Origin: an uncultured Eubacteriales bacterium
GTDB taxonomy: Bacteria; Bacillota; Clostridia; Oscillospirales; Acutalibacteraceae
DNA: 64,000 nt
Reading direction: 5' to 3'
NCBI GenBank assembly: GCA_934552855.1
Contig: CAKTEU010000004.1
Span: forward strand, 17,021 to 81,020
Shown piece after piece: positions 14,553 through 58,416 of this stretch. The notes below the pieces were generated by a model. It was not told the origin of the DNA, made no database searches, and saw nothing but the letters and a program-made list of their open reading frames with translations. Position 1 is the stretch's first letter, and the number at the start of each line of letters is the position of its first letter. The position numbers and the translations under genes are program-made.

Positions 14553-15455
14553 ATGAAAAAAACTTCCCGCATTATTGCAATTGTTCTTTGCCTTGTTCTT
14601 GCGGTTTCGGCTTTGTCCGGCTGCACAATCAAGCTGAACATCAATGTTAACAACACCGGAAGCGCTGCTCCGGCAAACAACACAACCGCTGCTCCGGCAA
14701 CCGCCGCTCCGGCAACCACCGCCGCTCCGGCTTCAACCGCTGCTCCGGACGCAAGCAAGCCCGCAGAAAGCAAGCCTGCCGATAAGCCCGCCGACAGCAA
14801 ACCGGCCGATGACAAGCCCGCCGCAGCAGAGCTTTCCGCTTCTTCTTCAAAAGAGGACATCGTTGCCGAATATGTTAAGGTTTATAACACCACCAAAAAA
14901 GCCGGAACATTCACCGGTCACGACACAATGGCTCTTACAAGCGTTCTCATTGACGGAAAAGAAAACAGCATGGTTAAAAGCCTTGCCGCCGGTATCGTTA
15001 AGGCTGACGCAAAGGATATGCAGCTTCCGCCGTATACCGACAGCAACCCCGGCACGGAATGCATGATTACCGCAGCTGATGTTGCCGAAGCAACATATAA
15101 AGACAACGGCGACGGAACCGCAACAATCAAAATTGTTCCGATTTCCTGCAAGAACTCAAAGAGATTTGAAGACGCACAGGGCAAGATGTTCAACGTTATG
15201 GAAGACGTTAAGAGCACCGTTGACGGAATCAGCCTCATTTCATGGGCTGAGGGCGACACCGATTCAAACGTTGTTCTCACCTGTGACGGCGGCTATGCCG
15301 AAGTTACCTATAACAAGGACACAAAAATGATGACCGCTGCCGATTATACGCTCATCACAATCGCAGACGTTCAGCACGCAAACGTTGCAATTCTCAAAAA
15401 CAAGAGTGCAACCGCAACCTTTGATTACAAAATGCTCTTCCCCGGAAACGGCTGA
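14553..15455 (+). CDS. lipoprotein with an Ala/Thr/Pro/Lys low-complexity linker and an uncharacterised C-terminal domain of about 200 aa
   Basis: Lipobox is LSGC (MKKTSRIIAIVLCLVLAVSALSGC). KPAD-type repeats are present. The C-terminal domain is paralogous to 32928..33863. Confidence 0.8.
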   Translation: MKKTSRIIAIVLCLVLAVSALSGCTIKLNINVNNTGSAAPANNTTAAPATAAPATTAAPASTAAPDASKPAESKPADKPADSKPADDKPAAAELSASSSKEDIVAEYVKVYNTTKKAGTFTGHDTMALTSVLIDGKENSMVKSLAAGIVKADAKDMQLPPYTDSNPGTECMITAADVAEATYKDNGDGTATIKIVPISCKNSKRFEDAQGKMFNVMEDVKSTVDGISLISWAEGDTDSNVVLTCDGGYAEVTYNKDTKMMTAADYTLITIADVQHANVAILKNKSATATFDYKMLFPGNG

Positions 15456-15479
15456 TAAAACAAAAAAAACAACAAATTC

Positions 15480-15510
15480 GGGCATCCGCAATGGATGCCC
15501 TTATTATTTT
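15480..15510 (+). terminator. intrinsic terminator
   Basis: GGGCATCC-GCAAT-GGATGCCC followed by TTATTATTTT. Confidence 0.75.
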
Positions 15511-15645
15511 TATAAAACCGGTTCAGTCACTTTATTTCTGCGGAACTTTCTGCCTTGCTTTTTCCTCTTTGAAACTTTCAAGAATATCCTCTTTAGTGAT
15601 TGCTATTGTTTTTTCCATTTTTGTCCCCCGCTTCAGCTTTTTGTG

Positions 15646-17463
15646 TTAAAAGCCTTTATACCCGAAAAACCTGTTGACAAAATCATTCAAAGCTTTAAGA
15701 AGCTTTATGAAAAAGGCTTTTAAAAGAGACGTGAATTTTTCCTTTTTAACTTCGCTTTCGCTTTTCGGTGCGGCGGTGATTTTGTCTTTGATTGAATAAA
15801 AGCGTGTTTCGGCCTTTTTGAAAGCGTCTGCGTCAACAACCGTTTCTGCAAGGACTGCGTCAACTTCGGCAATTGCAGCCTTGAGTTCGGCCGCATCTTC
15901 GGGTGAAAGGGTTGACGTGTCATAATTTCTCATGCCGTCAACAGCACCGATGAGCCATTTTGAAAGCCTTGAATTGTTGAACTGCGGAAATTCGTTCGGA
16001 TAGGAGTATACGTTTTTGAAGTTTTTGTTCAAAAGAAGCTCTACCGCAAGCTTGATTATAACGTCGCAGCCTCCCGTGTATTCGTGGTTGTGGTTATAGA
16101 AATAGAAAGTGTGGTCGGGAAGAAGACCGGCCGAAGCGTCAACAATGTTATAAGGGTCAATGTGGTTGTGTTTCGAGTCAGTGCAGGTGCCGAAAGCGTT
16201 GCCCTTTTGGGCGTAATTTTCGCCGAGTGAGCCGTTGACCGGTGCGCTGACTGCTCCGAGCGAGGTTGAGTCAAGCTGAATGATTCCGTCGGCATTGACT
16301 TTGTTCCATGAGTCAACAATCGGATACATCGAATAGTTGTAGCCGACGATGTCAAAAAAATCAACGCCTTTGCTTTTGAAGGAAAGGATGTTTTTCTTTG
16401 CGTTAAGCTGAGCGTTATAAAATCTGTCGGTCTGCGCTCTGATTACGGCTTTTTCGTCGCTCATGAGATATTTTTCACGTGCGGTTTTATATGAACCCGA
16501 GGGAACAAGTCCCCACATACAGGTTGAATTTGAAAGATAATTTGCAATAAGCTTATCAACGGCAATGTCAAGAACGTCGTTAAGAACGTCTTTCGGAACA
16601 ATGCGGATAAGCAGGTTGACAAGATATCCCAAAAAATCGTCCTCGCCGATAAGCTTCGGGAACATATAATCATAAAGCGCATCGTCATCGTCAATAAAGC
16701 CTTTTTCAAAAATATCACCGATGAGAGCCGAACCGTCAACGGCGGGAACAATATATATGATTCTTCCGATGCTTTCCGCAACTTCGGGGTGAAATTCCAT
16801 AACTGCGTTCCAGATTGAGCCGCCCTGGCTGATTGGAACAACGTTGATTTTGCTGTGTCCGGTTTCCTTTTTTGCGGTTTCAATCAATTCGCAAAGCTCG
16901 TTTGCAAGGCGTTCAATGTTGTCAAACGATGAATAAGAGAAAAAGTAAAGGTGGTCTTCGCCTGCCTTTGAAATATAGCTTTCAAGCGGAATTGCGCCGA
17001 GGATATGATTTTTGTCGTGTTCACTGAGGTTTGCAACGCTCGTGTCATACTTTGCCGCACGAATATCGTAAACAAAATTTCCGTTGTTGTCTGACTTAAT
17101 TCTTTCCATGAGTGCGTTGCCGAGAACATCGCCCAATGCATTTGCAAATTCATGCTGACTGTCTTTCCTTGTCAGCAAAGTTTTTGAAAGCGGAAGAAGT
17201 GCATTTTTAACTGCGTCTTCAACAACTTCCGAAGTATCCATGAAAAACGGACCCTTTCTTTCGTTGCCTTTTGAATCAAGCATAATTTTTCCGTCTTCGT
17301 CATAGCAAAAAACTTCGCTTTGAAAAAGTCCCGGAATAACAACGGTCGGGTTGTTTTCGCACTTTCCGCCGCATGAAGCTTTGCCGGCAAAAGCAAAAAG
17401 CGAAGCCGAAGGCAAAACAAGAAGCAAGCAGAGAATAAGCGCTGTAAATCTTTTCATTTTCAT
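15646..17463 (-). CDS. secreted lipase/LCAT-like alpha/beta hydrolase (paralog A)
   Basis: ORF trimmed to MKMKRFTALILCLLLVLPSASLFAFA, with RBS GGGAG. PISQGG sits at the nucleophile-elbow position, ADGII is an Asp motif and HNHE is a His motif. It carries a C-terminal amphipathic tail and is a paralog of 56821..58416. Confidence 0.8.
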   Translation of the reverse strand: MKMKRFTALILCLLLVLPSASLFAFAGKASCGGKCENNPTVVIPGLFQSEVFCYDEDGKIMLDSKGNERKGPFFMDTSEVVEDAVKNALLPLSKTLLTRKDSQHEFANALGDVLGNALMERIKSDNNGNFVYDIRAAKYDTSVANLSEHDKNHILGAIPLESYISKAGEDHLYFFSYSSFDNIERLANELCELIETAKKETGHSKINVVPISQGGSIWNAVMEFHPEVAESIGRIIYIVPAVDGSALIGDIFEKGFIDDDDALYDYMFPKLIGEDDFLGYLVNLLIRIVPKDVLNDVLDIAVDKLIANYLSNSTCMWGLVPSGSYKTAREKYLMSDEKAVIRAQTDRFYNAQLNAKKNILSFKSKGVDFFDIVGYNYSMYPIVDSWNKVNADGIIQLDSTSLGAVSAPVNGSLGENYAQKGNAFGTCTDSKHNHIDPYNIVDASAGLLPDHTFYFYNHNHEYTGGCDVIIKLAVELLLNKNFKNVYSYPNEFPQFNNSRLSKWLIGAVDGMRNYDTSTLSPEDAAELKAAIAEVDAVLAETVVDADAFKKAETRFYSIKDKITAAPKSESEVKKEKFTSLLKAFFIKLLKALNDFVNRFFGYKGF

Positions 17464-17585: not shown

Positions 17586-17614
17586 TTGATTTTATCACCG
17601 GTTTATATTATAAT
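17586..17614 (+). promoter_or_regulatory. promoter of the SRP RNA gene
   Basis: TTGATT-17 nt-TATAAT. Confidence 0.6.
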
Positions 17615-17620
17615 AATTCA

Positions 17621-17818
17621 GCTAAAGCGGTTCCGGGCCGTTTGGCTTTTTAGACAAGATACTTTAATTTGGTCATGCAGCGGCGGGTCCTGTGCGGCAG
17701 GATACTGCGAACCATGTCAGGCGGGGAACCGAGCAGCATTAAGCGGGAATACTGTGCGACACAGTCAAAGCCTGCTGCTGTATGATCAAGCGAACGTGTC
17801 TTGTCTGTTTTTCTGTTT
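17621..17818 (+). ncRNA. ffs: signal recognition particle RNA (scRNA/4.5S homolog)
   Basis: GAACCATGTCAGGCGGGGAACCGAGCAGCATTAAG closely matches the conserved domain-IV segment (B. subtilis GAACCAUGUCAGGUCCGGAAGGAAGCAGCAUUAAG). The closing helix is AGACAAGATAC/GTGTCTTGTCT, followed by a U-tract. Its position immediately upstream of dnaX matches other Firmicutes. The ends are approximate. Confidence 0.8.
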
Positions 17819-17837
17819 GCCGAAAGGAGTGAAAAGA

Positions 17838-19568
17838 ATGTATCAGGTACTTTACAGAAAATACCGCCCAAAGGTATTCTCCGACGTTGTCGGTCAGGAT
17901 CATATCACAAAAACCCTTCAAAGCGAAATTGAAAAAGGAAAGCTTTCTCACGCATATCTTTTCACCGGCTCAAGGGGAACGGGAAAAACAACCTGCGCAA
18001 AAATTCTTTCAAAGGCGGTCAATTGCCTTCACCCCGTTGACGGAAACCCCTGCAACGAATGCGAAATTTGCAAAGGCATTGACTCCGGCGCAATTTTGGA
18101 TGTTGTTGAAATTGATGCCGCAAGCAACAACGGCGTTGATAACATTCGTGATATCCGTGACGAATCCGGCTTTGCTCCCGTCAGCTGCAAGTATAGGGTA
18201 TACATCATTGACGAGGTTCACATGCTTTCAATCGGTGCGTTCAATGCGCTTTTAAAAACGCTTGAAGAACCGCCGGAACACGTTATGTTCATTCTTGCAA
18301 CAACCGAAGTTCACAAGCTTCCCGTCACCATTCTTTCACGCTGCCAGCGGTTTGATTTCAGAAGGGTTGCGCCGCAGGACATGATAAAGCGAATGAACTA
18401 TATCGCCGAAAAAGAAAGCTTTATTCTTGATGAAGATGCGGCCATGCTCATTGCAAGGCTTGCCGACGGCGGAATGCGTGATGCACTTTCAACTCTTGAT
18501 CAATGCATTTCGGTTTCAAATCATGTCACAAACGAGGTTGTCTGTTCCGTTGCCGGAATTGCCGGAAAACAGCATCTTTTTGAAATTGCAAACGACATTG
18601 CAAGCCATAACAGTGCAGAAGCACTCAAAAAGCTCAGCGAACTTTATGCCGCTTCGTGCGATATGGAACGCCTTTGCGCCGATTTGACAATGCATTTTCG
18701 CAACCTTATGATTGCAAAAACGGTCAAAAACGCAGAAAATATCCTTGTTTGCACAAAGGACGAGCTTGAAAGCTATAAAAGTCAAAGCTCTCTTTTCACT
18801 CTTGAGGGCATACTTTATTCGATAGACCTTCTTCAGGAAGCTGCCGCAAACATCAAACGTTCGGTTAACCGAAGGATAGAAATGGAAATGACACTTCTGC
18901 GCCTTTCCTCGCCCTCGCTTGACAGCGGCAATGAAGCACTTTTAAAGCGTATTGCCGCACTTGAACTTGCGGTTAAAAGCGGCTCGTTCGTTCGGCAGAA
19001 AACAGAAACGCCCGAAGTACCGGAACCGGATATACCCAAGACACAGCCTGCGCCGGTGTCCGTTGAACCGCCGGCGGATGAAAGCTTTTTTGCTTTTTCG
19101 CCTTCGTTTGAAGATACTTTGCCCGAACCGCCGAAAGAACAAAGGCGTGCTTCGTGGGAAACCCCCGTTTCAAACCGTGAGGTGTCTGAGGCTAAAGCCA
19201 CACAAACTTCCGTTTCCTCTCAGGGCGAACAGTCATCTGTGCCATTTTCCGATTGGGCTCAGGTGCTTTCCGAACTTACGCAAATCAATCAGCCGCTTTG
19301 GGGCGTACTGATAGGCTCGACGGCGTTCATAAACGGCGAATTTGTTCTCATCAAAAGCGAAAACCCGACCTTTGCTTCCTTCATCAAAGTTGGAACAAAC
19401 GGCCGTGACGTTAAAGAGGCAATATACAGAGTTACCGGCAAAAAGTATCGTTTGGGTATATATAACCCGGCATCGGCACAGAAAAAGGAAAACTCAAAAC
19501 CGAAAGACCCTCTTCAAGACCTTGTTAAAAGAGCAAAGGACTTCGGTGTTCGGGTTGATGTTGAATAA
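17838..19568 (+). CDS. dnaX: DNA polymerase III subunit gamma/tau
   Basis: ORF 17586..19568 trimmed to the ATG at 17838 (RBS AAAGGAG): MYQVLYRKYRPKVFSDVVGQDHI...GSRGTGKTT. Confidence 0.92.
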   Translation: MYQVLYRKYRPKVFSDVVGQDHITKTLQSEIEKGKLSHAYLFTGSRGTGKTTCAKILSKAVNCLHPVDGNPCNECEICKGIDSGAILDVVEIDAASNNGVDNIRDIRDESGFAPVSCKYRVYIIDEVHMLSIGAFNALLKTLEEPPEHVMFILATTEVHKLPVTILSRCQRFDFRRVAPQDMIKRMNYIAEKESFILDEDAAMLIARLADGGMRDALSTLDQCISVSNHVTNEVVCSVAGIAGKQHLFEIANDIASHNSAEALKKLSELYAASCDMERLCADLTMHFRNLMIAKTVKNAENILVCTKDELESYKSQSSLFTLEGILYSIDLLQEAAANIKRSVNRRIEMEMTLLRLSSPSLDSGNEALLKRIAALELAVKSGSFVRQKTETPEVPEPDIPKTQPAPVSVEPPADESFFAFSPSFEDTLPEPPKEQRRASWETPVSNREVSEAKATQTSVSSQGEQSSVPFSDWAQVLSELTQINQPLWGVLIGSTAFINGEFVLIKSENPTFASFIKVGTNGRDVKEAIYRVTGKKYRLGIYNPASAQKKENSKPKDPLQDLVKRAKDFGVRVDVE

Positions 19569-21135: not shown

Positions 21136-21483
21136 GGGGATGAAAGGATTTCGACGGGGACTCTGAACTCTGATAAGCGGGTAGTGCCTGTGCAACCACT
21201 TTAAACTGCACAAACTTTAAAAATAAACGACAATACTACAGTATTGAAGGCTGCTTAACGCAGCCCGTCTGAGCTTTGAGTACTGCGGCGAAGCATCAGG
21301 CGTTACGAAGCAGTGAACGTGAACAGCCGAGCACCTCGTAGGCTGTCATGAACAAGGGGCTACCGAGGACTAAAGCCTGTCTTTCGGCGTTGGTTTGAGG
21401 GAATTTTAAAAGACTGACTGCACCCGGAGAAAGTCAGACGGATCGGTTTTCGGACGCGGTTTCGATTACCGCCATCTCCACCA
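21136..21483 (+). ncRNA. ssrA: transfer-messenger RNA
   Basis: The 5' end is GGGGATGAAAGGATTTCGACGGGG and the 3' end is GGACGCGGTTTCGATTACCGCCATCTCCACCA. The tag frame ends ...AAT ACT ACA GTA TTG AAG GCT GCT TAA, with the stop in a hairpin loop. It lies directly downstream of smpB. Confidence 0.9.
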
Positions 21484-21855: not shown

Positions 21856-23523
21856 ATGAAAAGAAAAATCCTTGCATTAATCCTTGCGGTCATGATGATC
21901 GTTTGTGCTCTCCCGTTCGCCGCTTTCGCTTCAAACGGAAGTGCTATCCACGATGAAATTCTTGACAACAGCCATTATTATCATATGGACTATGTTGAGA
22001 ACGAAAACTATTTCAAAGGTGAGTTCGGCTGGTATACCGCTCTCGGCTTCTATGACAACGCTTGGTATAACCTTATTGACAAATCGGTTGATATCGACTA
22101 TGCAAAGGCTGTTCTTCTCGGCCTCATTGAACAGGTTGAAGCTGAATACAACAACGAAACCTTTGAAGAGATTATGAAAATTCTCAACGGCGCAAGCAGC
22201 GCAATGGGCGTTATTGAAAAGGTAAGCGAAGTTTCCAAAAAATTCACCGACGCTCTTGACTTTGCTCAGTCCGCAGAATGGGGAACAACCCTCGGCGTTC
22301 TTAACGGCGTAATCAAAGCAGCAAACTACGGCAACGAAGTTTACAAAGCTTATGTTAAAGGTTATGCAATGATTCTTTCCGCAAAGGCAGCAAGTGCTTT
22401 TTACGGCGACTTCCTTACATATCTTTCCGAAAACTGCAAAAACGAAGCTGTTAGAAAAGCAGCTAAGGAAATTGCAGCAACAATCGACGCAGAAATGCAG
22501 GCAGCTGTTGACGAACTTGTAAAGTCACTCGCAGCAAACGCAGGTAAAGACGCCGTTACAATCGCTGCCGAAGTTGCTCTTGACAGCTATGGCGTAACAG
22601 CCGCAATCAAAGGCGCATACAAAACCGTAATCAATATTTCCGATAAGCTTTTCAACACCAAGGATAAGTATGAATTCATGGTATCGCTTGTTGAAACTTA
22701 TTACATTGAAGACTGCTTCACCGAATGGGCAAAGGCAGCTTTTGAATCGGATAACGCCGATTACGCTTCGTTTGCAGAAAGCACCGTAATCGCAGTCAGA
22801 GAAACCGGCGAAGGCCTTCTTGCAAAACTTGCAGCAGCTAAGACTTCGGCTCTTGTAAACATGGTTAAAAAATATGACGCAACCGAAATCAAAGTAAAAA
22901 CCGCAGCAGAACTTGCAAAGCTTAACGTTGCTTCGGCAATCCTTGCAGCAGACGCAGACGCAGCCTATGCAAAGAGCGTTGTTGTTACCGGTAACACCGC
23001 AGTAGCAGTTAAGGCAGCAGGCGCAGACGTATTCACAATTGCAGACGGCGAAGCAGTTCCCGCAGTTGTTACCGCTTCCGGCGCATACGGTAGCGTTTAT
23101 AATGACGGTCTCGGCCAGTATGTTAAGGCTGCTTATCTCCTTGGCGACGACTATGACGTTGTTCTTTCCGGCGCAGAAAAGAACGGAACCGTTTACGGCG
23201 TTGTCGGAAACAGCTACACTTGCGTTGACACCACCGCAGGCAGAACAATCACATTCAAAAACGTTCTCACCGCTCCGTCAATCGTTGTTGCCGACGAAGG
23301 AAAAGAAGCAATCACTCTTTCGTTCAGCGATAAGTTTGTTAAGACTTGCGATCCCTCCGTTGCAGTAAGCGGCGGTTCAAGCTCCTCGGGCGGTTCAAGC
23401 AGCTCAGGCTCTTCCTCAAGCGGCTCCTCCTCAGTCGGAAGCTCAATCAGCAAGGCTTTCTCAGACTTCTTCAAGAGCATTATTGAAGCTTTCAAAAACA
23501 TCTTCAAAATCTTCAAGAAGTAA
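21856..23523 (+). CDS. secreted Ala-rich alpha-helical protein of unknown function with a Ser/Gly linker and an amphipathic C-terminal tail
   Basis: ATG at 21856 follows AAAGGAG. Signal peptide is MKRKILALILAVMMIVCALPFAAFA. It ends ...GGSSSSGGSSSSGSSSSGSSSVGSSISKAFSDFFKSIIEAFKNIFKIFKK. Confidence 0.75.
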   Translation: MKRKILALILAVMMIVCALPFAAFASNGSAIHDEILDNSHYYHMDYVENENYFKGEFGWYTALGFYDNAWYNLIDKSVDIDYAKAVLLGLIEQVEAEYNNETFEEIMKILNGASSAMGVIEKVSEVSKKFTDALDFAQSAEWGTTLGVLNGVIKAANYGNEVYKAYVKGYAMILSAKAASAFYGDFLTYLSENCKNEAVRKAAKEIAATIDAEMQAAVDELVKSLAANAGKDAVTIAAEVALDSYGVTAAIKGAYKTVINISDKLFNTKDKYEFMVSLVETYYIEDCFTEWAKAAFESDNADYASFAESTVIAVRETGEGLLAKLAAAKTSALVNMVKKYDATEIKVKTAAELAKLNVASAILAADADAAYAKSVVVTGNTAVAVKAAGADVFTIADGEAVPAVVTASGAYGSVYNDGLGQYVKAAYLLGDDYDVVLSGAEKNGTVYGVVGNSYTCVDTTAGRTITFKNVLTAPSIVVADEGKEAITLSFSDKFVKTCDPSVAVSGGSSSSGGSSSSGSSSSGSSSVGSSISKAFSDFFKSIIEAFKNIFKIFKK

Positions 23524-25873: not shown

Positions 25874-26524
25874 ATGAAAACCGTTTTTCTTGTTTTATTC
25901 TTTCTTGTCGGTGCCGTGCATCTTGCCGCAAGTTTTTTTGACAGGCAAAAAATCAGATATGCAACAAAAGCGTTTATTCTTCTTTTTCTTTTGCTTTACT
26001 ATATTCTTGCGGCGGAAAAAGCGGACGGAATAATGATTGCGGCTCTCATAACAAGCCTTGTCGGCGATATATTTTTAATGCCGTCGGGTATTGTTTTCTT
26101 CGCTGTCGGCGGCGCAAGCTTTCTTGCGTCTCAGGTTCTTTTTATACTTCGGTATTCGGCAATCATTGAGTTTTCTTCGGTTAATGCTGCGGCGGTCTGT
26201 GCTGTTGCGGCTGTGTACTTTGCTGCGGCGGTTTGCGCTTTCAAAAAACTTAAAGCGGGAATGGACGCAAAAACGCTTGTCGGTGCGGCACTTTATCTTG
26301 CAATTAACGGCACAATGAACCTTTTTGCCTTCATGCTGCTTTTTTCAAAGCCGTGCTTCGGTTCGGCACTTGTTTTTTTTGGTGCCGTGTCGTTTTATGT
26401 TTCGGACATACTTTTGTTTTTCAACGATTTTTATGTTCGGCCGCTCAAACGCAAATATTTTCTTGTAATGCTTACATATATTATTGCGGAATTTTGCATC
26501 ACGCAAGGCATTTTGATGATTTGA
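25874..26524 (+). CDS. YhhN family membrane protein (lysoplasmalogenase family)
   Basis: 216 aa, polytopic, with SLVGDIFLM and YVSDILLF motifs that match the two conserved YhhN D-containing motifs. Confidence 0.7.
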   Translation: MKTVFLVLFFLVGAVHLAASFFDRQKIRYATKAFILLFLLLYYILAAEKADGIMIAALITSLVGDIFLMPSGIVFFAVGGASFLASQVLFILRYSAIIEFSSVNAAAVCAVAAVYFAAAVCAFKKLKAGMDAKTLVGAALYLAINGTMNLFAFMLLFSKPCFGSALVFFGAVSFYVSDILLFFNDFYVRPLKRKYFLVMLTYIIAEFCITQGILMI

Positions 26525-46879: not shown

Positions 46880-47659
46880 ATGAAGAACACAAAAAGACTT
46901 AAAGCTGTTCTTGCCGTTATTATTTGTGCGGCGGTTGTTATTTCGGCGATGTTCTTTTATTCGTTTGAAAAAACAAAAAGAAATTTTAACGTGCAGTTGC
47001 TTCCGGAAGATTTTACGGTTACGGGACACACCGGCTGCATGGGCGAAAAAGATAACTCCGTTGAAGCAATGGAATCTGCGGTTTCCGCCGGAGCACAGAT
47101 TATTGAGTTTGACCTGAATTTTGACGAAAAAGGCGAACCGGTTCTTTCTCACGATGAGCCGAAGGGAGGCGAGGTTACGCTTGAAGAGGCTTTTAAGTTC
47201 CTTCAAAAGCACCCTGCCGTTCTTGCAAACGTTGACGCAAAGAGCACAAAAAACCTTGCCGCTGTTCAAAAGCTCGGCGAAGAATACATGGTGCTCAGTC
47301 AGCTTTTTTACACCGGAATCGGTGAGGAGGATGTTGAGGCTGTTAAAAATGACAGCACGAAAATTCCGTATTATCTCAACGTTGACGTTGGCAAAAGCAA
47401 AGCTTCAAACAAAGATTATCTTGAAGAAATTGCGATGAAGGTTATTTTGAGCGGCGCTGTCGGAATCAATATGCACAAACGTGCCGTTACAAAAGAACTT
47501 TGCGGCTTTTTTCACCAAAAAGGACTTTTGGTTTCGGTGTATACAGTGAATAATGAATACGAGCTTTATCGTGTTCTTTCCTGCGGACCGGATAACATTA
47601 CTTCAAGAAGACCGGACAGGCTTTCAAAAATACTTGAAGCAAAAAACAAAGTTAATTAA
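46880..47659 (+). CDS. membrane-anchored glycerophosphodiester phosphodiesterase family protein
   Basis: It has an N-terminal TM segment and VTGHTGCMGEKDNSVEAMESAV.AGAQIIEFDL....G.PVLSHD. Confidence 0.85.
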   Translation: MKNTKRLKAVLAVIICAAVVISAMFFYSFEKTKRNFNVQLLPEDFTVTGHTGCMGEKDNSVEAMESAVSAGAQIIEFDLNFDEKGEPVLSHDEPKGGEVTLEEAFKFLQKHPAVLANVDAKSTKNLAAVQKLGEEYMVLSQLFYTGIGEEDVEAVKNDSTKIPYYLNVDVGKSKASNKDYLEEIAMKVILSGAVGINMHKRAVTKELCGFFHQKGLLVSVYTVNNEYELYRVLSCGPDNITSRRPDRLSKILEAKNKVN

Positions 47660-56055: not shown

Positions 56056-56601
56056 ATGAAATGGTTCATTGCGTCCGATATCCACGGAAGCGCATATTAC
56101 TGTGAAAAAATGATTGAACGATATAAGGAGGAAAAATGCGACCGCCTTGTTTTTCTCGGTGATATTCTTTATCACGGGCCGAGAAACGATCTTCCCCGTG
56201 ATTATGCGCCGAAAAAGGTTATTGCAATGCTTTCGGAATATAAGGACGAAACGTTTTCCGTTTGCGGAAACTGTGATTGCGCCGTTGATCAAATGGTGCT
56301 TCCGTTTCCCGTTCTTGCGGAATATTCTGTTCTTGACACCGGAAAAAGGCTCATCTTTTTGACTCACGGACACATTTATAACGAAGAAAAGCTGTTGCCG
56401 ATGAAAAAGGGAGACATTCTTCTTTCCGGCCACACGCACGTTCCGAAGTGCGAAGAAAAAAACGGCTTTGTTTTTATGAATCCCGGTTCGGTTTCAATTC
56501 CGAAAGAAAACAGCGTGCACAGCTATATGACGCTTGAAAACGGAACTTTTCTTTGGAAAAACATTGAAGACGGAAAAATATATATGGAATATAAAATTTG
56601 A
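56056..56601 (+). CDS. yfcE: YfcE/MJ0936 family metallophosphoesterase
   Basis: SDIHGS, ...LGDILYHGPRN, ...GNCD, ...THGH, ...GHTH. Confidence 0.85.
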   Translation: MKWFIASDIHGSAYYCEKMIERYKEEKCDRLVFLGDILYHGPRNDLPRDYAPKKVIAMLSEYKDETFSVCGNCDCAVDQMVLPFPVLAEYSVLDTGKRLIFLTHGHIYNEEKLLPMKKGDILLSGHTHVPKCEEKNGFVFMNPGSVSIPKENSVHSYMTLENGTFLWKNIEDGKIYMEYKI

Positions 56602-56820: not shown

Positions 56821-58416
56821 ATGAAAAAAATTATATCAATCGTTCTCTCGGTACTGTTGCTTTTTTCTGCGCTCGGCGCAGGCACGGCTGCTTTTGCCGC
56901 AGACGAATGTTCGTGCGGCGTAACGCCGATTGTTTATGTCAAAGGCAGAACAGACATATATAAAGATAAAAACGACCTCAGCAAGGGCTTGGCCGAAAAA
57001 AATGTTTCAGGCGGAAAAGAATCAATAAAAGAGGCCGCAATCAACATTTCTTCCGCATTTGCAAAAGCCATGCTTACGGATGAATGGGACGAATACTGCG
57101 ATGTTCTTTATGAGGAGATTGCGCCGCTTTACGATCAATACCCCTGTGACGAAAACGGAGAGGTTTCAAACAGCAGCGGAATTGCCCCTTATTGGAGCAT
57201 TGAAGAAACCGTTAAAAGAGCAATTGAACGGGGCAGAAATTTTCATATCTATGCCAAAGACGATATCACCCTTTATCAGTTTCAATATGACATACGCCTT
57301 GACCCGATAAAAAATGCGGCCGACCTCAAATTGTTCATTGAAACCGTTAAAAAAACTTCGGGTCACAAAAAAGTGAGCATCGTTTCACGCTGTGAAGGAA
57401 CGGTTATTGCAAACGCACTTTTCAACGCTTACGGTTGGGACGATATTGAAAGCGTTGTAATGTATAACCCGATTGCCGCCGGTGCGGAAATTGCAGACAG
57501 CGTTTTCGGAAATACTGTAAAATTCGATTCCGCCGGAATCAGCAGAATGGCGTTTGAATTTCTCGGCAACGACCCCGTTATGGACCTTATCAGAAGCGGA
57601 CTTGAGCTTTCCGAATACGGCGGTGTTCTCGGTTCGGTCTCCGATTTTGTTCAAAAAATCTATGACAAGGTTGCACCGAACGTTATGCCGAGGCTCATCA
57701 GGGCAACGTTCGGTCAATGCCCCGGCTGGTACGGAATGGTTAGTCCCGAAGTTTTTGAAGACTGCAAAAACTTTACCCTCGGCGGAAATCCGGACGGAAA
57801 ATATGACGGGCTGATTGAAAAAATTGACAATTATAACTACGGATACAAATTAAAAGCACGTTCGGTTCTTGAAGAAATGAAAAATGACGGCGTAAGAGTT
57901 TATGTTATTGCAAAGTATAACAATCAAATGTATCCGGTTATGGAAGTCAGCGACAGGCTCGGCGACGGCGTTGTTTCGGTTCTTAAGCAAACCTATAACG
58001 GTTCAACCTGCGCCGATATCACAAAAACTTTGAGCGACGAATATCTTGCTTCGGCAAACATGAAATATGTTTCGCCGGATAAGATGATTGATTCTTCAAC
58101 GGCTGCTTTTCCGGAGCATACATGGTATATCCGTGACCTTCAGCATGATTACTATCCGTCGTCGTTTGACCCGTATATTTTCAAGCTTGTCCGCTATGAC
58201 GGTTATGCCGATATTGATACTTTTTCGGATATGCCTCAGTATCTTCGTTATGTCGGTGTGAGAGAAAACGACAACAATCACATTGAGATTTTGACAAGTG
58301 AAAGCCCGTTGCCGACGGATAATCAGCCGAAAAAATCAATTGTTACAATTCTTATGGACTTCATAATCAGAGTGCTCAACTTTATCAAATATCAGTTTGA
58401 CAAAATTAAAAAGTGA
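56821..58416 (+). CDS. secreted lipase/LCAT-like alpha/beta hydrolase paralog B, with Cys at the nucleophile position
   Basis: ATG at 56821. Signal peptide is MKKIISIVLSVLLLFSALGAGTAAFA. It is colinear with 15646..17463: SGHKKVSIVSRCEGTV versus TGHSKINVVPISQGGS, GDGVV versus ADGII, and LQHD versus HNHE. It carries a C-terminal amphipathic tail. Confidence 0.8.
   Translation: MKKIISIVLSVLLLFSALGAGTAAFAADECSCGVTPIVYVKGRTDIYKDKNDLSKGLAEKNVSGGKESIKEAAINISSAFAKAMLTDEWDEYCDVLYEEIAPLYDQYPCDENGEVSNSSGIAPYWSIEETVKRAIERGRNFHIYAKDDITLYQFQYDIRLDPIKNAADLKLFIETVKKTSGHKKVSIVSRCEGTVIANALFNAYGWDDIESVVMYNPIAAGAEIADSVFGNTVKFDSAGISRMAFEFLGNDPVMDLIRSGLELSEYGGVLGSVSDFVQKIYDKVAPNVMPRLIRATFGQCPGWYGMVSPEVFEDCKNFTLGGNPDGKYDGLIEKIDNYNYGYKLKARSVLEEMKNDGVRVYVIAKYNNQMYPVMEVSDRLGDGVVSVLKQTYNGSTCADITKTLSDEYLASANMKYVSPDKMIDSSTAAFPEHTWYIRDLQHDYYPSSFDPYIFKLVRYDGYADIDTFSDMPQYLRYVGVRENDNNHIEILTSESPLPTDNQPKKSIVTILMDFIIRVLNFIKYQFDKIKK

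Follow-up and report, generated by a model that had tools for sequence, protein, structure and literature searches.

Family-specific amphipathic C-terminal helices as candidate lipid-interface binders on exported proteins of an uncultured Clostridia genome

When several exported proteins of one genome region end alike in composition, do they carry a single module or several tails of separate origin, and what might such tails do? This question is raised by a 64,000-nucleotide stretch of an uncultured gut Clostridia genome (contig CAKTEU010000004.1, positions 17,021 to 81,020; GC content 43%), referred to below as the window. In it, an earlier note had picked out four proteins with signal peptides and unrelated catalytic regions, and in weaker form a fifth, that close in a Phe- and Lys-rich amphipathic segment, and had read this recurrent segment as a possible anchoring or sorting module. 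Our analysis instead leans, partly by analogy with a known membrane-tethered enzyme, towards independently evolved, family-specific amphipathic helices that may bind the bilayer interface or other lipid surfaces.

Translation of the open reading frames (ORFs) reproduced exactly the five C-termini and the coordinates given for them. The four main proteins are encoded at 21856–23523 (plus strand, 555 aa; the family-1 protein below), 15646–17463 (minus strand, 605 aa), 56821–58416 (plus strand, 531 aa) and 7533–8594 (minus strand, 353 aa). They begin with MKK or MKR, followed by a hydrophobic core of 12–18 residues and AFA- or ASA-type sites; these canonical Sec-type N-termini agree with the classical signal peptides described for them, the call being a heuristic one (MKK/R, hydrophobic core, A-x-A). 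Also borne out by Pfam and hydropathy, for these four proteins, was the reported lack of an LPXTG motif, a lipobox, a dockerin or a membrane-spanning tail. LPXTG, PEP and GG motifs were not found in the four tails, and neither the whole proteins nor the isolated tails had a dockerin match in Pfam. The L-[AS]-[GA]-C lipobox is absent from the four leaders, in which Cys residues lie inside the core or outside a context of G/A/S at -1 and L at -3. The maximum Kyte-Doolittle 19-mer of the tails ranges from 0.67 to 1.46 (1.46 in 56821–58416), which is below the membrane-spanning level, and charged residues occur throughout.

To quantify amphipathicity, we computed the hydrophobic moment (μH) and mean hydrophobicity (<H>) of the best C-terminal 18-mer on the Fauchere-Pliska scale, obtaining μH 0.80 and <H> 0.57 for 21856–23523, 0.68 and 0.69 for 15646–17463, 0.56 and 0.69 for 56821–58416, and 0.61 and 0.66 for 7533–8594. 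Against a background of 14,003 internal 18-mers from the window's own proteins, all four μH values lie at or above the 99.5th percentile, and two of them, including that of the family-1 tail, exceed every background 18-mer. When Eisenberg-scale μH over the full tail was compared with residue shuffles, two of the four tails were individually significant, namely the 25-residue family-1 tail (μH 0.74, net charge +4, p<2e-4) and that of 56821–58416 (μH 0.53, p=0.004).

We then applied a joint criterion of μH>=0.55 and <H>>=0.5 at the C-terminus, with thresholds picked after the data had been seen. Among the window ORFs it was passed by 4 of 9 in the signal-peptide class and by 0 of 46 others (Fisher p=3.7e-4, at these post hoc thresholds). 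We also scanned 96 related loci (denoted by L-numbers) totalling 1.09 Mb, from metagenome-assembled genomes (MAGs) labelled Eubacteriales, Ruminococcaceae UBA6416, Clostridiales DTU089, Acutalibacteraceae and Oscillospiraceae. There, the criterion was passed by 1 of 280 cytoplasmic families, 0 of 14 lipoprotein families and 2 of 60 signal-peptide families, these two being family 1 and the EEP family introduced below, together with about a third of the lipase family. A simpler classifier on the same 1.09 Mb, μH>=0.5 plus positive charge, separated the classes poorly (5 of 59 signal-peptide versus 14 of 283 cytoplasmic families), so that mean hydrophobicity had to be added. Three probable lipoproteins of the window, 14553, 23644 and 34209, have true lipoboxes and lack such a tail; the ORF classifier had placed 34209 in the signal-peptide class. 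The amphipathic tail is a real and rare feature, restricted to a few families; it does not characterise the secretome as a whole.

We next consider whether the four tails are one module. The four proteins are not all unrelated, as had been claimed, since 15646–17463 and 56821–58416 are paralogues (BLASTP E=1e-18, 23% identity over 482 columns); three independent families remain, comprising family 1, a lipase-like family and a family of EEP phosphodiesterases. A hidden Markov model (HMM) of 26 family-1 tails, run against 270 ORFs from the window and 16 related loci, recovered family-1 members only; the lipase tail scored about 0 bits (-0.8), and the EEP tail was not among the matches even at E<=100. 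A multi-family profile of 32 positions, built from 17 sequences (the four window tails and 13 family-1 tails), gave eight matches at E<=1e-3 in 1.84 billion representative proteins. Five of these were family-1 proteins, all aligned at the very end of the chain; the remaining three, two repeat proteins and one protein hit internally, had no relation to them. A profile search for further secreted proteins, which the earlier note had offered as a way to refute its own proposal, thus found none beyond family 1, with the limited power of a 32-position profile against 1.84e9 proteins. Comparison of the three tail alignments with hhalign gave probabilities of 0.8–2.3% and scores of 11–15, overlapping the 6–12 of reversed-sequence controls. 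Scans of whole proteins and isolated tails against Pfam and NCBIfam returned no tail or sorting model, with two noise matches (E 0.03–0.12), and we found no description of these tails in the literature. By the tail HMM, the multi-family profile and hhalign alike, what the tails have in common is physico-chemistry and not sequence, and the idea of one recurrent module was therefore abandoned.

Within each family the picture is different, as the family-1, lipase and EEP tails each have their own motif. Hydrophobic positions, spaced by three to four residues, are hydrophobic in 100% of the sequences of a family, while polar positions vary, even in sign. Judging from their retention down to 32–48% identity, depending on the family, the tails are under selection, and each, on this sequence evidence, has long been inherited vertically with its own family and is not a shared module. 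One example of a tail peptide is SKAFSDFFKSIIEAFKNIFKIFKK.

Family 1 is small and lineage-restricted, with 37 homologues. The tail is present in all 36 complete ones, down to 32% identity, the 37th (P0025) being a C-terminally truncated fragment. The AlphaFold2 (AF2) model of the protein at 21856–23523 comprises the signal peptide, an all-helical domain of ~330 aa, a beta-sandwich of ~120 aa, a Ser/Gly-rich low-complexity linker (23368–23439, about aa 505–528) and the amphipathic tail SSISKAFSDFFKSIIEAFKNIFKIFKK (23440–23520). The linker has no secondary structure and a predicted local distance difference test score (pLDDT) of 27–30, and it differs in length and composition between homologues while the tail is retained (alignment occupancy 0.72 for the linker versus 0.92 for the tail). 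The tail itself is modelled as a helix (residues 530–552, pLDDT ~40) that is not confidently docked. Its motif is F..FF..II.AFK.IF.IFKK, and positions 531, 535, 538, 539, 542, 546, 549 and 550 are hydrophobic in 100% of 14 diverse homologues. As it combines a disordered Ser/Gly linker with a low-confidence helix, the modelled tail of 21856–23523 is the best candidate for a free in-plane anchor. The protein matched nothing in Pfam, NCBIfam or the PDB; neither a profile search of the PDB nor Foldseek gave a significant result, and a likeness to alpha-toxin (Foldseek E=0.05, probability 0.13) was considered and dropped.

For the lipase-like family, the AF2 model of 15646–17463 (pLDDT 86) matches Tle4, LipC12, LCAT, LPLA2 (lysosomal phospholipase A2), PhaZ7 and PlaB in Foldseek (E 6e-6 to 1e-3), with probability 1.0 for Tle4, LipC12, LCAT, LPLA2 and PlaB but low TM-scores of 0.2–0.5. 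For this family 852 homologues were detected. An I-S-Q-G-G nucleophile-elbow motif is invariant or almost so, and no Pfam family scores above threshold for the lipase-like proteins. On the predicted fold, 15646–17463 and its distant paralogue 56821–58416, which clusters in the same family, can be assigned as putative enzymes of the lipase/LCAT/phospholipase-like alpha/beta-hydrolase kind. The catalytic region of 15646–17463 is followed by a three-helix C-terminal extension of ~110 aa, whose terminal helix (...FFIKLLKALNDFVNRFFGYKGF, 15649–15744; residues 569–600 in the AF2 model, pLDDT 75–84) immediately follows two helices of pLDDT ~95 and is capped by an invariant G-x-x-G-hydrophobic motif. 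The same helix occurs in the best 120 of the 852 homologues (at least 48% identity), the motif having been scored in 93 distinct tails. The paralogue has an amphipathic tail without the GxxG motif (KKSIVTILMDFIIRVLNFIKYQFDKIKK, 58330–58413), and other lipase subfamilies have a second amphipathic helix after the glycine motif; the paralogues retain amphipathicity, not sequence.

The lipase extension is associated with export. Among members with a hydrophobic leader, 50 of 52 have a C-terminal extension of at least 85 aa (~110 aa), whereas six of the ten leaderless members have none, ending 7–9 residues after the catalytic core, and one more ends before the last helix (p=8e-6 for the association, with few independent events behind the count). 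As the extension tracks the presence of the leader, it appears to go with export and not to be needed by the fold. The leaderless paralogues that lack both signal peptide and helical extension are ~450 aa long and end 7–9 residues after an F/YPQF motif. Leaderless paralogues are found at L051:6302-7669, L052:6302-7669, L057:5295-6662, L083:8427-9776, L087:21-1385 and L064:7741-9249; they are presumably cytoplasmic versions, encoded a few kb from the secreted copies. Separately, a spurious 112-aa ORF (15385–15723, plus strand) runs opposite to the 3' end of the lipase gene and, by mirroring the codons of the real tail, is itself scored as an amphipathic tail; it is a caution for automated tail scans.

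The third family is represented by 7533–8594, which matches PF03372 at 35.8 bits (cutoff 24.5). A profile of 24 homologues matches human SMPD2 (neutral sphingomyelinase 1; 8j2f, E=1.2e-11, residues 36–307) and sphingomyelinase C (7cne, E=6.7e-7). Together, these matches identify the protein as a putative neutral-sphingomyelinase-type EEP phosphodiesterase, for which 645 homologues of this type were detected. Its C-terminal amphipathic helix (7536–7634, minus strand) is located past the match to the catalytic domain, whose end is at about residue 307, and is about neutral in net charge. The tail motif, D-hydrophobic-x-K-hydrophobic-x-x-H-x-D-E-L, was seen in every tail inspected, about half of the 111 distinct tails of the best 120 of the 645 homologues (at least 45% identity).

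How could such helices act? After Sec export and signal-peptide cleavage, as the N-termini would imply, the last 18–30 residues are predicted from sequence statistics and AF2 to form a helix, one face of which is broad and rich in Phe, Leu and Ile and the other polar and frequently rich in Lys. By analogy with the penicillin-binding protein PBP5, this helix might partition parallel to the membrane plane, where it could retain the enzyme at the producer's cytoplasmic membrane, on the outer leaflet, or concentrate it on substrate lipid surfaces or vesicles. An interface-binding helix is functionally useful for enzymes that work at an interface. The earlier note had suggested an in-plane membrane anchor on lipid-active enzymes. 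The anchor fits the data in its PBP5-like parameters, its conserved hydrophobic faces and the family-1 linker, although membrane binding would have to be assumed; the description of the carriers holds for two of the three families, which have a lipase/LCAT-like fold and a neutral-sphingomyelinase profile, respectively, and not for family 1, which has no such match. From the models, the case appears strongest for the family-1 protein and weaker for the lipase family, whose helix, with its invariant GxxG ending, may also be structural.

The closest known parallel is PBP5, in which the last 18 residues form an amphipathic helix that tethers the enzyme to the outer face of the inner membrane, and removal of the helix solubilises the enzyme (PMC2909392). 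Applied to the tail of E. coli PBP5 (dacA; GNFFGKIIDYIKLMFHHW), our script gave μH 0.62, <H> 0.77 and z +1, which places it alongside the window tails (μH 0.56–0.80, <H> 0.57–0.69). In both cases a Sec-exported protein with a signal peptide ends in a non-spanning amphipathic helix, here a predicted one, and the family-1 and PBP5 tails have FF..II...K..F in common (6 of 18 identities). The systems differ in that the carriers here are lipase-like, sphingomyelinase-like and family-1 proteins, not DD-carboxypeptidases, and in that the host is a Gram-positive-type Clostridia MAG, in which membrane binding is presumed from sequence. The window tails are also richer in Phe and Lys, and the family-1 tail sits on a long Ser/Gly linker. 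More generally, in-plane membrane anchors form an established class (Sapay et al. 2006, PMC1564421). Their helix lies parallel to the membrane and is detectable by hydrophobic moment and not by homology, which is the pattern of the window tails, whereas most characterised examples are cytoplasmic or viral. What would be new here is the putative presence of PBP5-type C-terminal anchors on new enzyme families; the kind of anchor is known.

Other lipid hydrolases offer a looser parallel. SMPD2 has C-terminal transmembrane anchors after its catalytic domain, and Clostridium perfringens alpha-toxin uses a PLAT/C2-like domain for membrane targeting. The EEP profile aligns with SMPD2 over the catalytic domain only, so that the EEP tail would sit at the position of the SMPD2 anchors, and in each of these enzymes an accessory C-terminal element after the catalytic domain brings, or might bring, an interfacial enzyme to the bilayer. 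The element here is a single amphipathic helix, in contrast to the transmembrane helices of SMPD2 and the beta-sandwich domain of alpha-toxin.

Several observations weigh against lipid binding, and some of them favour a plainer account in which the tails are ordinary structural helices that pack on their own domain or extension, or mediate oligomerisation, with no membrane role, three families each happening to end in a helix. The shuffle test was not individually significant for the tails of 15646–17463 and 7533–8594, the two p values being 0.12 and 0.09, and the enrichment among exported proteins is weakened by post hoc thresholds, by orthologues that are not independent of each other and by heuristic signal-peptide calls. 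Positive charge varies across family 1, in which some tails are net neutral. In the EEP tail, polar residues (D, K, H, D/E) are conserved, hinting at specific contacts. The lipase helix combines a pLDDT of 75–84, after two helices of ~95, with its invariant glycine cap, and it is kept in one or two probable lipoprotein members that are already anchored; both features suggest that the role of this helix is structural, at least in part. An anchor in the cytoplasmic membrane would, moreover, hold the lipase beneath the thick wall, away from bulk lipid substrates, so that the helices may serve binding to substrate lipid or vesicles more than retention. Also in line with the structural account, an amphipathic helix is common at the end of cytoplasmic proteins (μH>=0.6 in 3 of 33 from the window), and the fifth tail, of 2653–4290, is best read as structural. 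Other findings are hard to reconcile with it. The family-1 tail is set apart from the fold by a variable, disordered linker and has a pLDDT of only ~40; the combination of <H> 0.57–0.69 with high μH, which matches PBP5, is nearly absent at cytoplasmic C-termini (the 1 of 280 families above); and the lipase paralogues conserve amphipathicity and not sequence, with leaderless members dispensing with the extension, which indicates that catalysis does not need it. We regard the structural account as rather unlikely, though second in rank to lipid binding.

Two further explanations fare far worse. In one, which the earlier note had raised as an alternative, the tails are a shared recognition signal read by a dedicated export, attachment or processing system. 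The circumstances that several signal-peptide proteins of one genome region end alike in composition, and that known anchor motifs are absent, speak for it. Such a tag should show a shared motif, and none was found: the family-1 HMM misses the lipase and EEP tails, the multi-family profile recovers only family 1 and three unrelated proteins, the hhalign scores overlap those of the controls, and the motifs differ by family, leaving the recognition tag unsupported. Each tail is, moreover, as old as its own family, no conserved motif lies upstream of the helix, there is no transmembrane segment or shared cleavage site, and the 1.09 Mb scan brought up, apart from the third of the lipase family, only two signal-peptide families that were already part of the finding. 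Sortase-type signals, by comparison, combine a brief signature motif with a transmembrane helix and a cluster of basic residues; one profile recognises them across unrelated cargos, and a processing enzyme co-occurs. The signals of sortase, exosortase, archaeosortase and rhombosortase systems (LPXTG, PEP-CTERM, GlyGly-CTERM) resemble the window tails in being C-terminal on signal-peptide proteins with diverse catalytic domains. The window tails have no signature motif, no transmembrane helix with basic cluster, no cross-cargo profile and no candidate sorting or processing enzyme adjacent to them. We consider a sorting signal very improbable, and give hardly any credence to the other explanation, that the tails are latent cationic amphipathic antimicrobial or cytolytic peptides freed by proteolysis at the linker. 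The family-1 tail (FFKSIIEAFKNIFKIFKK, +4), which we take to resemble Phe/Lys-rich helical antimicrobial peptides, does follow a protease-accessible linker, whereas charge is not conserved (family-1 tails can be net neutral, and the EEP tail is about neutral), no cleavage site is conserved, and the tails are always joined to large conserved enzymes.

If the tails are indeed helices that bind membranes, as we lean towards, they suggest a simple sequence rule (signal peptide, polar linker and a C-terminal helix with high μH and hydrophobicity) that would predict surface-retained or lipid-targeted exoenzymes in Gram-positive gut bacteria. Current localisation predictors label such proteins 'secreted'. 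A bolder scenario, which we think rather doubtful, is that Oscillospirales-type gut Clostridia have linked Sec-exported lipid and phosphodiester hydrolases with convergent Phe-rich helices as generic lipid-binding modules, shuttling between the producer membrane, vesicles and dietary or host lipids, with the family-1 protein as a new membrane-active factor; if so, these modules would be the lipid counterpart of carbohydrate-binding modules. Also worth noting are the proteins themselves, namely the lipase/LCAT-like and neutral-sphingomyelinase-type homologues and the lineage-restricted family-1 protein: a widespread and uncharacterised set in Clostridia whose substrates may be lipids of host, diet or bacteria. 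It reveals no new sorting pathway, and the conceptual advance is modest.

The fifth protein, a secreted protein of 545 aa encoded at 2653–4290 (plus strand), had been listed as carrying a weaker version of the tail. Its C-terminal helix (SASAIANVFAELIKDVK, nt 4237–4287) is short and uncharged to acidic (μH 0.46, net charge 0), and it is conserved in paralogues of 28–33% identity, the behaviour of an ordinary terminal helix. Judged by this conservation, it is probably no anchor but the final helix of the fold. The protein has no Pfam or PDB match, and a ceramidase-like identity was dropped as unsupported by sequence and profile searches.

In the genome, the tail-bearing genes lie among housekeeping genes, and in relatives they tend to co-occur: the EEP, hydrolase, 545-aa and family-1 genes in L003, and family 1 with the 545-aa gene and a lipase paralogue in L010. 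Lipid- or phosphodiester-related genes are concentrated near the tail genes in the window, encoding a membrane-anchored GDPD-like protein, a metallophosphoesterase, a YhhN protein (lysoplasmalogenase family) and an N-terminally anchored alpha/beta hydrolase (46880–47659, 56056–56601, 25874–26524 and 6425–7267). In other Clostridia, secreted metallophosphoesterases of the calcineurin-like or purple-acid type often flank the gene for the lipase homologue (16, 14 and 7 loci; L072–L079). These neighbours support a theme of lipid or phosphodiester processing, in which interface-binding helices would be functionally sensible.

Elsewhere in the window, a 221-bp element occurs in two inverted copies (5891–6111 and 7291–7511; 99% complementary) that bracket the alpha/beta-hydrolase gene at 6425–7267; its ends are 17-bp terminal inverted repeats (GGGACTGTCGCATTTAG), resembling those of a miniature inverted-repeat transposable element. 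Window positions 5887–64000 are identical to the ENA metagenome scaffold ERZ28613653 scaffold_617, which to the left of 5887, the outer edge of the left copy, has phage-like and FeoAB genes instead. The two sequences part here through recombination or inversion, or because the assembly was joined at the repeat. A tmRNA gene (21136–21483; tag peptide DNTTVLKAA) immediately follows smpB, upstream of the family-1 gene. A small signal recognition particle (SRP) RNA is located upstream of dnaX (17681–17780); the ORF 17586–19568 accordingly overlaps the SRP RNA, and the real dnaX start lies near 17838.

Among the relatives, other kinds of C-terminus were observed. These candidate anchors of other types include L011:5740-9141, L092:6558-8123 and L020:4017-5522. 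A 1133-aa protein (L011:5740-9141) ends in IPATGS, a hydrophobic stretch and KKKK, a sortase-like signal; other proteins have a putative C-terminal transmembrane helix followed by RKKKK; and the C-terminus of one protein is dockerin-like in appearance (DIDSDRKVTSKEARSVLRFAAKL). Finally, next to the family-1 locus in five relatives (L005:15960-17399, L006:16150-17628, L007:12294-13823, L009:941-2404 and L010:962-2422), a conserved ~480-aa protein that lacks a signal peptide has a strongly basic C-terminal end (...KKDAFPGRLKGKLEKIKNRFGR), which is a different kind of C-terminal tail.

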